From contig OY769902.1 in assembly GCA_963669175.1 (NCBI GenBank), forward strand, positions 3,040,001 to 3,104,000: a DNA stretch of 64,000 bases, in the 5' to 3' direction. The position numbers and the translations under genes were made by a program. Under the pieces are notes generated by a model. That model was not told the origin of the DNA and made no database searches. It saw only the letters and a program-made list of their open reading frames with translations. Position 1 is the first letter of the stretch. The number at the start of each line of letters is the position of its first letter. The DNA comes from a bacterium (GTDB lineage Bacteria > Electryoneota > Electryoneia > Electryoneales > Electryoneaceae). This document shows, piece after piece, positions 39,759-54,406 of the stretch.

Positions 39759-39880
39759 AGTGAAAAAAGTGAAAAAAGTAGGCAGTGAAAAAAAAGCAGC
39801 TGCGTTTTGAGTTTGTAGGTATGCAAGTTTGAAGGTTACAAAGTAGGAAGGTTATTAAGCTGTAAAGTTATAAAGTTATT
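39759..39880 (+). repeat. Degenerate 9-mer (AGTGAAAAA) and 8-mer (R-G-T-T-N-N-A-A-like) arrays
   Basis: Visible periodicity immediately after the glyA stop. Confidence 0.6.
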
Positions 39881-39882
39881 GG

Positions 39883-39923
39883 TTTTATCCTTGATATCCT
39901 TTTATCCTATTATCCTGTGAGTC
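39883..39923 (-). repeat. Solo AGGAT x4 arm
   Basis: Reverse complement matches the left arm of the GxxExxY element (53164-53198) at 34/35. Confidence 0.85.
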
Positions 39924-40003
39924 GATGATTCTGTTAAGCGGTGACGTAAAGCGCAAGAAGTTACATTCATAGAGAAGCTCCAGCATCCCGGAGGCTGAGC
40001 ACG

Positions 40004-49486: not shown

Positions 49487-50899
49487 ATGGCGTTGGAAAA
49501 GCACGTTTTCAAGGGATTGGACATACCGGGTAACACCGACCTCAAGGTGTACGAGGCCAACGGTGGTTACGAGGTCTGGAAACGAATCCTGAAAGATAAG
49601 ATCACACCGGAAGAAGTTATCCAGATCGTAAAGGATAGCGGGCTGCGCGGCCGTGGCGGCGCGGGCTTTCCGACTGGTTTGAAATGGAGTTTCGTGCCCA
49701 AGGATTCACCCAAGCCGAAATACCTGCTGTGCAACTGCGACGAATCTGAACCGGGAACCTTCAAAGACCGTGAGATCATTGAGAAGTCGCCGCACCAGTT
49801 GATCGAAGGTATGCTGATCGCGTCCTATGCATTCGGCTCACAGAACTCCTGGGTGTATTTCCGTGGTGAGTTTGTAAAGGGATACCGTACTGTCGAGGCA
49901 GCGCTTGCGCAGGCACGTGAAGCCGGCTATATCGGCGAGAATATCCTTGGCAGCGGTTGGAATCACCAGATGTATACGCATCGCGGAGCTGGCGCGTACA
50001 TCTGCGGTGAAGAAACAGCGTTGATCGATTCGATGGAAGGCAAGCGTGGCGAGCCTCGTCTGAAACCACCGTTCCCGGCGGTTGAGGGATTCTATCGCAG
50101 CCCGACCATTGTTAATAACGTAGAAACACTGACAGCCGTACCGAAGATCATGGAAAACGGCGCAGAATGGTACCGTCAGTGGGGTACTGAGCGCAGCCCG
50201 GGCACCAAGCTTTGGAGCTGCTGCGGTCATATCACCAATCCGGGTGTGTATGAAGTCCCGCTCGGCTACCCGATGAAGAAGTTCTTTGAAGAAGAGCTTG
50301 GCGGCTGTTGGAAGGGCCACCAGTTGAAGTGCGTTATCCCGGGCGGCAGCTCGGTTCCGGCCATGTTACCCGATGAATTCTTCGCTTGTAACATGGACTA
50401 TGAAAGCATCGCGCAGCATGGATCGATGCTCGGTTCCGGCGGCATGATCGTAATGGATGAGAAGACCTGCCTGGTGGAAGTGGCTGAAGTACTGGCGCAG
50501 TTCTATCATCATGAAAGTTGCGGACAGTGTACTCCATGCCGTGAAGGCACCGGCTGGGTTCACCGGATTATCCGTGACATCGAACGCGGAACACCGCAGC
50601 ATAACGTAAAAGAAACCCTGCTGCTGGTCTTCGACGAGATCTTCGGCAACACGATCTGCCCGTTGGGCGACTCGATTGTTATGCCGATCAAGAGCCTCAT
50701 GGAGAAATTCCCGGAAGAATTCGATTATTACATCCGTGAAGGCAAATCGATGATCACCGGCAAGGCCAAGCGCGCCCATGAAGTTAAAGAGCCGCGTCCG
50801 CATAACTGGCGCCGTGGGAAGCCGTTCAACTATCCCACAGCGGAAGACTATGTGACCGACTTCAAGGGACAGGTTGTTCACGACACCAATCCTAAGTAA
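49487..50899 (+). CDS. nuoF: NADH-quinone oxidoreductase subunit F
   Basis: GRGGAGF, DESEPGT, YICGEET, ESCGQCTPCREG. Confidence 0.96.
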   Translation: MALEKHVFKGLDIPGNTDLKVYEANGGYEVWKRILKDKITPEEVIQIVKDSGLRGRGGAGFPTGLKWSFVPKDSPKPKYLLCNCDESEPGTFKDREIIEKSPHQLIEGMLIASYAFGSQNSWVYFRGEFVKGYRTVEAALAQAREAGYIGENILGSGWNHQMYTHRGAGAYICGEETALIDSMEGKRGEPRLKPPFPAVEGFYRSPTIVNNVETLTAVPKIMENGAEWYRQWGTERSPGTKLWSCCGHITNPGVYEVPLGYPMKKFFEEELGGCWKGHQLKCVIPGGSSVPAMLPDEFFACNMDYESIAQHGSMLGSGGMIVMDEKTCLVEVAEVLAQFYHHESCGQCTPCREGTGWVHRIIRDIERGTPQHNVKETLLLVFDEIFGNTICPLGDSIVMPIKSLMEKFPEEFDYYIREGKSMITGKAKRAHEVKEPRPHNWRRGKPFNYPTAEDYVTDFKGQVVHDTNPK

Positions 50900-50998
50900 T
50901 TAGGAATTAGGAATTGATGGTGAATTAAGAATTGAAAATTAAGAATTAAGAATTAAGAATTAAGAATTAAGAATTAAGAATTAAGAATTAAGAATTAG
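50897..50998 (+). repeat. Heptamer tandem array (GAATTAA), about 14 units
   Basis: 7 perfect units at 50943-50991 plus degenerate units starting at the nuoF stop. Confidence 0.95.
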
Positions 50999-51020
50999 CA
51001 ATCGACACTGAGTTTCAGTT

Positions 51021-51061
51021 GTGTCAGGTCTTGGCGTGCGAAGCGCGGTGTGACCTGACAC
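51021..51061. repeat. GTCAGGTC-type REP hairpin
   Basis: GTGTCAGGTCTTG...GTGTGACCTGACAC. Confidence 0.7.
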
Positions 51062-51144
51062 GTGAGGCAGCGCGACAAGAACAGTAATCCGGGGTAATCC
51101 CGGGGACAGATAGCAACACATCGGTAGGCAAACGGAGTGTTCCG

Positions 51145-52098
51145 ATGCCAGAAGTAACGATAGACGGCAAGAAGGTAGAGGTTCCGAACGGGACGACGAT
51201 CCTGTGGGCGGCGCGTAAGGCCGGAGTAGAGATTCCGACTTACTGTTACTACCCCTGGTTCCCACCGTCGGGCAACTGCCGCATTTGCCTTGTTGAATGC
51301 TGGGGCCCGCGTGGTGGCGAATTGGTGCCTTTCCCCAAGCTTCAGATTGCTTGCCAGACGCCCGTATCGGACGGCATGGTGGTTGAAACGAACAACGAGC
51401 GTGTGTTCAAAGCACGGCGCGGAGTCATGGAATTCCTGCTGCTGCATCACCCGCTGGATTGTCCGATTTGTGACCAGGCCGGAGAGTGCGACCTGCAGGA
51501 CTATGGCTACAAATATGGCCATCCGGTTGGGCATAACCGGCATGAACGGCGCACTTTCAAGAAATCCGACTATGGTGACAAGGTTTCCCGGGAAATGAAT
51601 CGTTGTATTCATTGCCGCCGGTGCATTCGGCTGAGTGAGGGGTACCTGGGGGTGAGCCATATTGGTGCACTCCATCGTGGAGATCACTGCGAGATCGGTT
51701 CCTGGGTGGAAGGTCCGCTGGAGAGCGAATGGGCTGGTAACATCATCGATGTCTGCCCGGTAGGCTGCCTGACCGACAAGAAAATGCGCTTCAGTGTGCG
51801 TGCCTGGGATCTGGAACATGTCCCGGCGCATCGTAAAGACTGCAAGCATGGTTGCAAGGCGCTGTTGGGACTGTATCGTGGTAAGATTTACCGTGTCACG
51901 GCCCGCTTCGACGATCATCATGTCATGAAAAGCCTGATCTGCGACGAATGCCGTTTCGAGCATTACAATCTCGACGATTGGGTGATTGACGAAGATGATA
52001 TCCATACGCCACTTCCGGCCGATCAGAAGATCATGAAGGTCGAAATGGCGGAAAAGAAGCTCCAACAGGAGGCCGAAAAGGAGAACAAGGATGATTGA
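51145..52098 (+). CDS. nuoG: NADH-quinone oxidoreductase subunit G (short form)
   Basis: GNCRICLVE, HPLDCPICDQAGEC, RCIHCRRC; 317 aa. Confidence 0.9.
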   Translation: MPEVTIDGKKVEVPNGTTILWAARKAGVEIPTYCYYPWFPPSGNCRICLVECWGPRGGELVPFPKLQIACQTPVSDGMVVETNNERVFKARRGVMEFLLLHHPLDCPICDQAGECDLQDYGYKYGHPVGHNRHERRTFKKSDYGDKVSREMNRCIHCRRCIRLSEGYLGVSHIGALHRGDHCEIGSWVEGPLESEWAGNIIDVCPVGCLTDKKMRFSVRAWDLEHVPAHRKDCKHGCKALLGLYRGKIYRVTARFDDHHVMKSLICDECRFEHYNLDDWVIDEDDIHTPLPADQKIMKVEMAEKKLQQEAEKENKDD

Positions 52099-53161
52099 GT
52101 TCAATACTGAGCTGCTCCTGTTCGTGCTGGAAAAATGCATCGTCGCCGGGTTCATCTTCGTGGTTGTGCTTGGTGTGGTGGCGTATGCAACCCTCGGTGA
52201 ACGCAAGATCGCGGGCTGGTTCCAGGATCGTCATGGACCGAACCGTGCGGGGCCCTGGGGACTGTTGCAGCCGATTGCTGACGGTATCAAGTTCTTCATG
52301 AAAGAAGACTTTATTCCGGATCATGCACATAAAACATTGTTCATCATAGCGCCGACTTTCACCTTTATGGGCGCCGGTTTCCTGATGGCAGTCATCCCGT
52401 TCGGCGACCGGATGATGATCTTCGGACGCGATGTGATGCTGCAGATCGCTGACATCCATATCGGTATCCTGTACATTCTCGCTATCAGTGGCATGAGCGT
52501 GTACGGTCTTACCATCGGTGGCTGGGCGTCGAACAACAAATATTCTCTTATGGGTGGCGTTCGTGCCATCAGCCAGGTGATTTCCTATGAAATCCCGGTT
52601 GGTCTGGCATTGATCGCGCTTCTGATGGACCAGGGAACAACGTCCCTGCGTGAGATGGTGTTGAACCAGGGCGGTGGCATCTGGCACTGGAATGTGTTCA
52701 GTCAACCGTTGGGCTTCATCATTTTCTACGTGGCGTCGTTTGCTGAAGCGGGACGTATTCCGTTCGACCTGCCGGAAGCTGAAAACGAGCTGGTTGGCGG
52801 GTATCACACAGAATACTCGTCCATGAAATTCGGTCTTTTCCAGTTCGGTGAATATACCCATATGACCTTGGCCAGCGGCATTATCGCCACCCTGTATTTC
52901 GGCGGCTGGCAGATCCCGTTTGTCACGCCTCCGGCGGACCCGGGCATCATCTGGGGCCTCCTGACCTTTGCCGTATTCTGGATTAAAGCCTGTTTCTTCA
53001 TCTTTGTTTTCATGTGGGTACGCTGGACTATCCCGCGCTTCCGATATGATCAACTGATGCGGGTAGGGTGGAAGTCCTTGATTCCTTTTGGTATCCTGAA
53101 CATCGTCCTTACAGCTGTCCTGTTGCTCGTCGCGCAGCACCTCGGCTGGGCTGGGCAGTAA
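52091..53161 (+). CDS. nuoH: NADH-quinone oxidoreductase subunit H
   Basis: ERK..Q.R.GPN, QPIADGIK, PFDLPEAE.ELV.G, PRFRYDQLM. Confidence 0.96.
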   Translation: MIEFNTELLLFVLEKCIVAGFIFVVVLGVVAYATLGERKIAGWFQDRHGPNRAGPWGLLQPIADGIKFFMKEDFIPDHAHKTLFIIAPTFTFMGAGFLMAVIPFGDRMMIFGRDVMLQIADIHIGILYILAISGMSVYGLTIGGWASNNKYSLMGGVRAISQVISYEIPVGLALIALLMDQGTTSLREMVLNQGGGIWHWNVFSQPLGFIIFYVASFAEAGRIPFDLPEAENELVGGYHTEYSSMKFGLFQFGEYTHMTLASGIIATLYFGGWQIPFVTPPADPGIIWGLLTFAVFWIKACFFIFVFMWVRWTIPRFRYDQLMRVGWKSLIPFGILNIVLTAVLLLVAQHLGWAGQ

Positions 53162-53163
53162 GT

Positions 53164-53644
53164 CTCACAGGATATTAGGATAAAAGGATATCAAGGATGA
53201 AAAACTAATGGAAAAGAAAAGCTTTGTTAATGAAGAACTGACAAAGAAAATTATTGGTATATGTTATAAAGTACAAAATGAGCTTGGTGCAGGATTTTTG
53301 GAAAGTGTGTACCATAATGCTCTTCTAATAGCTTTGCGAGATGAAGGTTTTTCAGTTGAAAGTGAAAAACGATTAAAAGTGCATTTTCATGGTAAAGAAG
53401 TAGGAACGTTTTTCGCTGATATTGTTGTTGAAGGGAAAGTTTTAATTGAGTTGAAAGCAGTTGAAGAATTGAAAAGTGATCATAAAGCCCAAGTAGTTAA
53501 CTATCTGAAAGCGTCATCAATAGAAACAGGTTTACTTGTTAATTTTGGAAAGCAGAGAGTTCAGATTAGCAGGTTGTATAAACCAGAAAAGCAAAGTAGT
53601 TAAGTTTTTATCCTTAACATCTTTGTATCCTAATATCCTGTGAG
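53164..53644 (+). mobile_element. Putative GxxExxY nuclease element with inverted AGGAT-repeat arms
   Basis: Arms 53164-53206 and 53603-53644 (outer 19 bp perfectly inverted) enclose one AT-rich ORF between nuoH and nuoI. Confidence 0.65.
53208..53603 (+). CDS. GxxExxY protein (PD-(D/E)XK nuclease superfamily)
   Basis: GFLESVY, ADIVVEGKVLIELK, QVVNYLK, GLLVNFG. Confidence 0.93.
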   Translation: MEKKSFVNEELTKKIIGICYKVQNELGAGFLESVYHNALLIALRDEGFSVESEKRLKVHFHGKEVGTFFADIVVEGKVLIELKAVEELKSDHKAQVVNYLKASSIETGLLVNFGKQRVQISRLYKPEKQSS

Positions 53645-53696
53645 TCCCGTTGCATCCTGTTGATAGATGAGGATGTGGTTAGAGGAGGAAAGAGTA

Positions 53697-54224
53697 GTGC
53701 AGGACAACACACAAGATCGTTACCGCAAATACGACTTGACGCTGATGGAGAAGCTGTACATCCCGGCGATCATGAAGGGTATGGGTGTCACACTTTCCCA
53801 CTTCTTCAAGTGCGGATTCGGATTCGGTCCGGGCACAGTCACCGTACAGTACCCGGAACAGAAGCTTCCAATCAGCCATCGTTGGCGTGGACGTCATACC
53901 CTGAAGCGTGACGAGTTCGGCCGTGAACGCTGCGTTGGCTGCCAGATGTGTGAGCTGGCCTGCCCTGCGGACGCCATTACGATCCAGGCGGGCGAGGTTC
54001 CCCCGGAACGGCGGCATCTGCACCCGACGGAACGTTATGCGATTACCTACGAGATCGACATGCTGCGCTGCATTTACTGCGGCGACTGTGAAGAAGCCTG
54101 CCCGGAAGCGGCCATCTTCATGACTCCGTTCTACGAATTTGTAGCGGACAGCAGGGATAAACTGATCTATACCAAGGAAATGCTGACCGAGAAAGAAGGC
54201 GGTCCGATTTTCTACAAAGACTGA
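53697..54224 (+). CDS. nuoI: NADH-quinone oxidoreductase subunit I
   Basis: QYPE, CVGCQMCELACP, CIYCGDCEEACP; GTG start after GAGGAGG. Confidence 0.95.
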   Translation: MQDNTQDRYRKYDLTLMEKLYIPAIMKGMGVTLSHFFKCGFGFGPGTVTVQYPEQKLPISHRWRGRHTLKRDEFGRERCVGCQMCELACPADAITIQAGEVPPERRHLHPTERYAITYEIDMLRCIYCGDCEEACPEAAIFMTPFYEFVADSRDKLIYTKEMLTEKEGGPIFYKD

Positions 54225-54233
54225 TTGATTGCT

Positions 54234-54361
54234 TAACAGGATGCAAGGATAAAAGGATATAAAAGATAAGAATAATTCGTTGCTATTATAAAAGTTAGCA
54301 TGTTTTTACGGAAAAGAAAGAGGTTTTATCCTTATCATCCTATCATCCTAATATCCTGTTA
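54234..54361. mobile_element. Gene-less AGGAT inverted-arm element
   Basis: Arms 54234-54270 and 54324-54361 with the same 8/8/9 spacing as the GxxExxY arms; short AT-rich core. Confidence 0.65.
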
Positions 54362-54406
54362 GAAAACTTGTTGTTGAAACGAAAAACCACATACGTGGGA
54401 TCTGCG

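Follow-up and report, generated by a model that had tools for sequence, protein, structure and literature searches.

The element reported here is closest in kind to the intervening sequence (IVS) of 23S rRNA. According to PMC4990558, the IVS of Coxiella carries a four-helix-bundle open reading frame (ORF) and has terminal inverted repeats that form a 28-bp stem; three tandem GACAGAT heptamers precede the ORF, and their number varies among strains. Cleavage of the stem by RNase III is shown experimentally in that paper, where the origin and means of spread of IVSs are called unclear. A second system is formed by REPIN repeats and the RAYT genes; RAYTs are single-copy and vertically inherited according to 10.1101/2022.05.22.493013 and 10.1101/119735. 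The present study concerns a window of 64,000 nt from a bacterium of the Electryoneaceae (contig OY769902.1, positions 3,040,001 to 3,104,000), and in it a gene of the GxxExxY family that lies between two inverted arms in the nuoH–nuoI spacer of the nuo operon. We identify the element as an iteron-armed cassette of the IVS type, in which inverted arrays of a short iteron enclose a small, AT-rich nuclease gene. Relative to the known systems it is of the IVS kind, with a REPIN-like population structure.

A repeat search recovered the arms as inverted repeats at 53164–53208 and 53600–53644 of the window (45 nt, 84% complementary, 391 nt apart), with the outer 19 nt matching perfectly. There are four AGGAT-like cores per arm, AAGAT replacing one of them in the right arm. 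The fit to the gene is tight: a single nucleotide separates the left arm from the start codon (ATG, 53208), and the stop codon (TAA, 53601–53603) is overlapped by the right arm. From its position 9–10 nt upstream of the ATG, the last core of the left arm could be used as a ribosome-binding site. The enclosed ORF (53208–53603) matches PF13366 PDDEXK_3 (E 1.1e-40, 139.1 bits, cut-off 22) and TIGR04256 GxxExxY (E 7.6e-42, 142.4 bits, cut-off 35; profile positions 1–115 of 116). Its upstream neighbour is NADH dehydrogenase subunit H (PF00146, E 6e-118), and the downstream one is a 2x[4Fe-4S] protein that aligns with nuoI of relatives. GC is 0.31–0.35 within the cassette against 0.50–0.62 in the flanks. 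No target duplication is visible at the arm ends (flanks AGT/CTCAC...GTGAG/TCC). In these respects, namely a 131-aa GxxExxY ORF enclosed by inverted arms, a perfect outer 19 bp, four AGGAT-like cores per arm, arms abutting start and stop codons and no clear target duplication, an earlier sequence-only reading of the window had described the locus correctly.

The packaging recurs around GxxExxY genes at large. Loci were collected for 12 such genes at other sites in relatives and for 41 loci from public genomes, namely Chloroflexota, Thermodesulfobacteriota, Spirochaetota, Bacteroidota, Planctomycetota, Verrucomicrobiota, Kiritimatiellota, Lentisphaerota, Acidobacteriota, Cyanobacteriota, Hydrogenedentota, Deferribacterota and one Thermoplasmata archaeon. 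An array was counted where at least three exact 5-mers spaced 6–11 nt lay no more than 150 nt from a gene end, a definition that passes over decayed arms, including the right arm of the window. Flanks were long enough for scoring in 55 of 58 rows, and the loci are not independent. Arrays adjoin 43/55 GxxExxY genes, whereas only 6/87 control ORFs from the same loci have one (Fisher 6e-19). Arrays stand at both gene ends in 18/55 (controls 1/87), and in 12/55 (controls 0/87) the two ends share one 5-mer in inverted orientation. Examples of the iterons are ACAGGAT, ACAGAAT, GGGAT, CGCGGAT, CACAGAG and CACGGAA. The proposal made from the letters alone, that arm, gene and arm constitute a unit, is upheld by this comparison over more than ten phyla. 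The near-identical copies L098 and L099 were considered as a case of intragenomic transposition and rejected, being one locus on two contigs of one metagenome-assembled genome.

Iteron sets were obtained for 48 loci, with host labels that are approximate for records of metagenome-assembled genomes. Among pairs from different host groups, a common iterated 5-mer was present in 2/42 when the proteins were at most 35% identical, in 42/518 at 35–45%, in 68/331 at 45–55%, in 42/118 at 55–70% and in 7/9 above 70%. The arm–protein co-variation suggested earlier as a check is thus found, 5-mer sharing rising from 5% at the low end of identity to 78% at the high end. Within the same host group, by comparison, proteins no more than 45% identical had a common 5-mer in only 1/52 pairs. 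Similarly, two GxxExxY genes in one genome go with two iteron types (AGGAT and CACAGAT in G003; AAGAT and CACAGAG in G006). The iteron type follows the protein clade, not the host, and arms and gene are co-inherited and co-transferred as one unit. Co-variation of iteron and protein is not by itself proof of recognition.

The protein is predicted to be a minimal RecB/Cas4-like nuclease, a bare core of 131 aa with intact catalytic residues. G29, E32 and Y35 of the G-x-x-E-x-x-Y motif are invariant in 50 aligned sequences, as are D71, E81, K83 and Q95, and Y99 is at least 90% conserved. The AlphaFold model (mean pLDDT 92.4) has its best Foldseek matches in the Protein Data Bank (PDB) with Cas4 SSO0001 (4ic1; E 1e-5, TM 0.55–0.60), MGME1, lambda exonuclease, RecE and the AddAB nuclease domains. 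Fold and motif set (E, D, ExK, QxxxY) are those of Cas4, RecB and lambda exonuclease; unlike these, the gene adjoins no cas, helicase or recombinase partner. Cas4 proper has a four-cysteine Fe-S cluster and a cas gene neighbourhood, whereas this protein, whose gene has nuoH and nuoI for neighbours, has one cysteine in 131 aa and therefore lacks a Cas4-type cluster. A PDB sequence search gave no match at E 1 or better, PADLOC nothing beyond a 12-bit partial match to a type IIG enzyme, and PHROGs no match. PDDEXK_3/PF13366 is given as of unknown function (PMC3424549), and no function of GxxExxY proteins was described in the literature searched.

A nuclease is not the only cargo so packaged. The genome of the window (G000, 5.45 Mb, one contig) has three four-helix-bundle genes (PF05635, S23p/Avd-like), each bracketed by iterated arrays, which are of the GTAAAGAAG, TTTTTCAC and TTAAGAAT types. 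The GTAAAG/GTGAAA and TTAAGAAT iteron kinds from these loci also form gene-less arrays in the genome. A search of relatives gave 30 four-helix-bundle loci, of which 26 were scored, the locus of G000 itself and three more being set aside (one at the start of a contig, one close to a contig end, one with an internal stop). An inverted-iteron score of at least 3 was obtained in 22/26 and of at least 2 in 24/26, in a flank window slightly wider than in the looser GxxExxY scoring. Since these genes and the Coxiella IVS share the packaging, the nuoH–nuoI cassette has the architecture of an IVS with another cargo and another host site. The common features are a small ORF (~120–130 aa), terminal inverted repeats around it that pair into a long stem, short tandem repeats immediately before the ORF, and an essential, highly conserved transcription unit as host. 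The differences are equally plain: the cargo is a PD-(D/E)XK nuclease here and S23p in the IVSs of Coxiella and Leptospira; the site is the mRNA spacer nuoH–nuoI, whereas IVSs lie in helix 25 or 45 of 23S rRNA; and the arm family of the cassette has about 100 gene-less copies.

The arms belong to a dispersed repeat, a point that the sequence-only reading had missed: with up to 3 mismatches allowed, the outer 19-mer has 87 matches in the genome and its reversed control has 1. The three-core motif likewise has 101 matches at up to 1 mismatch against 0 for its control. After collapsing, 105 arms are counted, among which 20 adjacent inverted pairs span 123–234 nt, with interiors that are AT-rich and mutually unrelated; larger pairs measure 475 nt (the nuoH–nuoI cassette), 496 nt and 623 nt, and a few are longer still. 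The arm is a discrete module of ~42 nt. Its conservation ends inwardly just inside the fourth core and outwardly just beyond (t)GACTCAC in 59 arms (A-type) or at GC/TTAAC in 32 (B-type). The TGA within the arm end TGACTCAC was considered as a stop codon of the upstream gene and rejected, as this holds for 2/105 arms. The sister species (G001), the only other member of the genus, has 58 copies; a further 29 relatives, 14 from the taxonomic family and 15 from the phylum, were searched and have none. The repeat is therefore genus-restricted, and here it has multiplied to about 100 copies, mostly without a gene, in a genome that holds a single GxxExxY gene. The arms are thus not private to the nuclease gene, nor, given the four-helix-bundle loci, are they specific to a nuclease. 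For four arm-bearing loci (L044, L045, L013, L017) Rfam gave no match at E 0.01 or better.

Several arrangements around these arms were noted. At three or more places (G000:C1:1279306-1279801, 1134805-1135658, 556032-556428) a conserved module of ~250 nt that is not AT-rich adjoins AGGAT arms or lies between them; two loci with the module have no match in Rfam. About five tandem copies of a ~130-nt unit stand between two AGGAT arms at G000:C1:2208249-2209255. In the window, three array families (GTGAAAAAA, AAGTT and a solo AGGAT arm) are stacked in one spacer at 39760–39925; in the orthologous spacer of G001 the outer arrays are retained, with ~400 nt of differing interior between them. The nuoI–nuoJ spacer of G001 has at least eight tandem 50-nt arm units instead of one gene-less pair.

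The nuoH–nuoI site was compared in 16 genomes of the taxonomic family, G000 included. A GxxExxY gene is present in six (G000, G001, G002, G003, G006 and G012, the copy in G003 with an internal stop) and a gene fragment in G007. Gene-less iterated inverted pairs occupy the site in G005, G013, G014 and G015, another repetitive spacer in G011, and plain short spacers in G004, G008, G009 and G010. Empty nuoH–nuoI sites, such as the sequence-only reading had proposed to look for, are thus present in relatives. Inverted iterated arms bracket 6/6 gene-bearing sites, and left and right arms vary in concert (AGGAT in G000, G001 and G003; AAGAT/ATCTT in G006; ACAGGAT/ATCYTGT in G002 and G012). In a tree of 58 rows the genes at this site in G000, G003, G006, G002 and G012 form one clade (support 96/90) from four genera. 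By this tree the cassette has resided at nuoH–nuoI since before the split of these genera, as an old resident and not a newly arrived insertion.

The copy of the sister species falls outside that clade, on a long branch, in a tree where eight rows have stops read as X. It is 42% identical to the protein of the window, compared with 48–57% for the other copies at the site, despite identities of 88% for NuoH and 92% for NuoI. Its arms are spaced 9/9/9 against 8/8/9 genus-wide. In the sister species, then, the content of the cassette has been exchanged at least once. A very close relative has had the whole spacer replaced: in a 4.5-kb contig of run X4 (metagenome of another study) with nuoH and nuoI 96–97% identical, 497 other letters stand in place of 53160–53682, and on the same contig 531 other letters stand in place of 54223–54380, the segment with the gene-less pair of the nuoI–nuoJ spacer. 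In a tree of NuoH plus NuoI, gene-bearing, pair-only and plain sites are interleaved with weak deep support, which fits one old gain with losses as well as repeated gains. At the site in G015 (L055), three tandem copies of a ~200-nt gene-less inverted pair with CACGAAT/ATTCGTG iterons were observed; in that genome (86% complete) a GxxExxY gene was not found, and there are 5 four-helix-bundle genes.

How such a unit might spread is a matter for more tentative reasoning. By analogy, the nuclease may act on its own iterons and thereby drive copying or exchange in a RAYT-like or homing-like manner, the mechanism that we prefer, regard as plausible and hold with reserve. The GxxExxY nuclease would recognize the iterons of its own arm family, as each RAYT does its own REPs. 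Cutting at or near the iterons could then lead to recombinational copying or replacement of the cassette, and could also seed gene-less arm pairs. The arms, once paired in the nuo transcript, would be a substrate for RNase III, as in the rRNA IVS, so that the insertion would leave the operon undisturbed. The RAYT/REP analogy is a hypothesis, not a result. A still broader proposal, which we consider doubtful, is that GxxExxY and S23p/Avd-like proteins would be the master genes of a widespread and hitherto undescribed class of iteron-armed intragenomic elements, each clade recognizing its own iteron, with inverted pairs as the non-autonomous copies that spread through intergenic DNA. These would be a counterpart of REPIN-RAYT in more than ten bacterial phyla and at least one archaeon, of which the IVS would be a special case.

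A number of observations weigh against a nuclease that drives its own arms. By the array definition used, 12/55 GxxExxY genes have no array, and some lie beside or between complete pairs and not inside them (L039, L035, L037, L098). One genome sampled for arrays (G025) has one GxxExxY gene, no four-helix-bundle gene and 0 arrays per 400 kb. The AAAGTT (51 arrays) and CGCAAAG (36 arrays) families of G000 have no cognate small gene found in that genome, and no GxxExxY remnant was detectable inside the gene-less pairs with hmmsearch --max. Because four-helix-bundle genes, for which no nuclease activity is known, share the packaging, a nuclease is not needed for the architecture; such cargo even goes with similar iterons, GGATGAA in G020 and G030 and GACAGAT in Coxiella. 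AGGAT cores are common to G000 and G001 though the two GxxExxY proteins are 42% identical. Arms occupy the same three spacers of the window in both species, with wholly different interiors, which speaks for low recent mobility. Finally, no excision or inversion joint specific to nuoH–nuoI was found in four runs, as contigs that are blind to rare forms; the mobility that had been proposed thus left no footprint of excision, inversion or new insertion in the contig data.

As the main alternative, the cassette may be a harmless insertion at the RNA level only, its arms an RNase III stem by which it is removed from host transcripts, the role of the nuclease unrelated or lost, and the spread and swapping of cassettes and arm pairs due to ordinary homologous recombination in the conserved flanking genes or the arms after DNA uptake. 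We rate this account as possible, on the unlikely side. A non-nuclease cargo has the same packaging, and RNase III cuts the iteron-bearing stem of the Coxiella IVS, according to PMC4990558. Folded as RNA, the arms close the structure in both minimum-free-energy and centroid folds (z -5.0), as do those of the nuoI–nuoJ pair (z -4.0). Of the short pairs, 19/23 lie between co-directional genes, usually 10–60 nt from each by a codon-model gene caller, and are therefore probably co-transcribed with their neighbours. The replacement in X4, from the nuoH stop to the nuoI start, is as expected for recombination in flanking genes. Nevertheless, a stem alone needs no iteration. The iterons are conserved and the spacers between them are not; mismatches between arms average ~9 per 43 positions and fall mostly between the cores; and on the transcribed strand G.U-compatible mismatches show no excess over A.C ones (51 against 42, p 0.41). 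Conservation bears on the iterated motif of both arms and not on base pairing itself. Conservation of the iterons without a G.U bias therefore favours recognition of the motif by some factor over a stem alone, and the stem may still form. An account at the RNA level also leaves unexplained why the iteron type tracks the protein clade across host groups and why the catalytic residues are invariant.

An improbable alternative is that the arms are host repeats, such as REP-like mRNA stabilizers, terminators or arrays bound by a host protein, with the GxxExxY gene as a passenger. The distribution of the ~100 copies has something of this character, being almost all intergenic (88/105 arms outside ORF calls that cover 88% of the genome), tightly fitted between genes, placed no more than 60 nt downstream of a long reading frame in 53/105 cases, and kept at orthologous spacers of the two species while interiors change. 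Against it, several unrelated iteron families coexist in one genome. The census of G000 gives AAAGTT with 51 arrays, AGGAT with ~55, CGCAAAG with 36, AATTAGGAA with 35, TTAAGAA with 10, and others; families are often nested, with CGCAAAG arms outside B-type AGGAT ends. Iteron type goes with the cassette protein instead of the host group, and the one GxxExxY gene of G000 and 3/3 of its four-helix-bundle genes are array-flanked. Moreover, arrays are missing from the samples of the two relatives that have neither small-gene family. Counted per 400-kb sample in seven genomes (shuffled controls 0–4), these are G016, with 1 array, and G008, with 0. With no GxxExxY and one four-helix-bundle gene, G021 has 4 arrays; G013 (one and six) has 27, G019 (two and six) has 10, and two samples of G000 (one and three) have 16 and 6. 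Co-occurrence of arrays with the two gene families at genome level is suggestive only. Between AGGAT, AAAGTT or CGCAAAG arrays of G000 there are ordinary large genes, standing between two pairs, and one 90-aa ORF; the latter, between CAGGAT-type arrays at G000:C1:2714683-2715114, may be another small cargo gene.

That the arms are sites of a separate site-specific recombinase, in an integron-like cassette exchange or an invertible switch, is highly improbable: different cargo lies between similar arms at one site in G000 and G001, interiors at orthologous spacers are hypervariable, known invertible promoter segments resemble the gene-less pairs (123–234 nt) in size, and B-type ends (GC/TTAAC...GTTAA/GC) loosely fit the attC core consensus, but 6/6 genes at the nuoH site are co-oriented with nuoH, no opposite-strand joint specific to this locus was found in runs X1–X3 of the organism's own study (strand-changing joints tie arm copies elsewhere), the arms lie on both sides of the cargo and are dispersed, not gathered in one array behind an integrase (no search for recombinases or intI was made), and the arm spacing of the G001 cassette is peculiar to it, as though arms and gene had come in together.

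RAYTs proper do not account for the AGGAT arms, because the 10 PF01797 (Y1_Tnp, RAYT-like) genes of G000 are free of iterated arrays to a distance of 300 nt. GC-rich palindromes of its own flank each of them (e.g. 2672127, 5013848, 5361261, 5087486), so that the association of a gene with its own flanking repeats already exists in this genome. The cassette resembles the REPIN-RAYT system in having a single-copy gene flanked by inverted copies of a ~100-copy repeat that occurs mostly as intergenic inverted doublets, in the lineage-specific repeat family, and in a gene position stable over long times. It differs in the enzyme, RecB/Cas4-like (PF13366) and not an HUH Y1 transposase (PF01797); in the repeat, an array of 3–4 iterons where a REP is one imperfect palindrome; in the long hypervariable spacers inside pairs; and in the transfer of the GxxExxY family across phyla. 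With insertion sequences and miniature inverted-repeat elements it shares terminal inverted repeats of ~40 nt with subterminal iterated motifs, and many short gene-less copies beside one with a gene. Unlike them, it is not flanked by a target-site duplication, its short copies have interiors with no relation to one another or to the gene, and no DDE, HUH or recombinase gene sharing these ends turned up, in an analysis that made no recombinase-directed search. Free-standing homing endonuclease genes are likewise small AT-rich nuclease genes between conserved operon genes, patchy among relatives and with divergent alleles at one site, but they are not wrapped in repeated inverted arms and seed no gene-less repeats.

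The only transposase among arm pairs up to 2.5 kb apart is an IS110-like ORF of 353 aa in a 1.9-kb pair (G000:C1:1686729-1688585). IS110-family elements target REP-like hairpins, and the ORF is probably an insertion into an arm pair. A further repeat block lies in the nuoF–nuoG spacer of the window, where about a dozen AATTAGGAATT/AATTAAGAATT units at 50897–51080 are followed by a GC-rich palindrome similar in kind to those beside the Y1_Tnp gene at G000:5087486; the spacer in G001 has a longer, different repeat block. The coordinates of the features are collected in the table.

Table. Features of the cassette and related loci (positions in the window, or in genome G000, contig C1, where so marked).
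Feature	Position	Strand	Remarks
Left arm	53164..53206	+	Outer end CTCAC, then four AGGAT cores at 8/8/9 nt spacing
GxxExxY gene, 131 aa	53208..53603	+	Predicted minimal RecB/Cas4-like PD-(D/E)XK nuclease
Right arm (inverted left arm)	53600..53644	-	Outer 19 nt the same; inner cores partly decayed (one AAGAT)
nuoH, host gene upstream	52091..53161	+	Stop codon 2 nt before left arm
nuoI, host gene downstream	53667..54224	+	ORF opening at 53667; probable start GTG 53697 behind GGAGGA
Gene-less inverted pair, AGGAT arm family (B...B ends)	54233..54362	.	Occupies whole nuoI–nuoJ spacer
Solo arm, AGGAT family	39883..39921	-	Adjoins GTGAAAAAA and AAGTT arrays
Four-helix-bundle gene	G000:C1:896757-897071		In-frame TGA
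Four-helix-bundle gene	G000:C1:899100-899414		
Four-helix-bundle gene	G000:C1:5095697-5096011		

In the literature searched, which did not extend to subscription journals, there is no description of a link between GxxExxY genes and iterated arrays, or of gene-less array families tied to such cassettes. To our knowledge, the GxxExxY and S23p/four-helix-bundle families, both large, have had no assigned role for decades. The locus suggests that the two have one packaging in common, inverted arrays that follow the protein clade and are able to multiply into large intergenic families. This shared packaging turns a function unknown into testable claims on whether iterons are specifically bound or cut, whether RNase III processes the transcript and whether cassettes are exchanged, and it gives annotators a means to recognize many intergenic repeats. 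Should the nuclease indeed drive its arms, this would be a second, independently evolved case of a single-copy gene that maintains a population of repeats.

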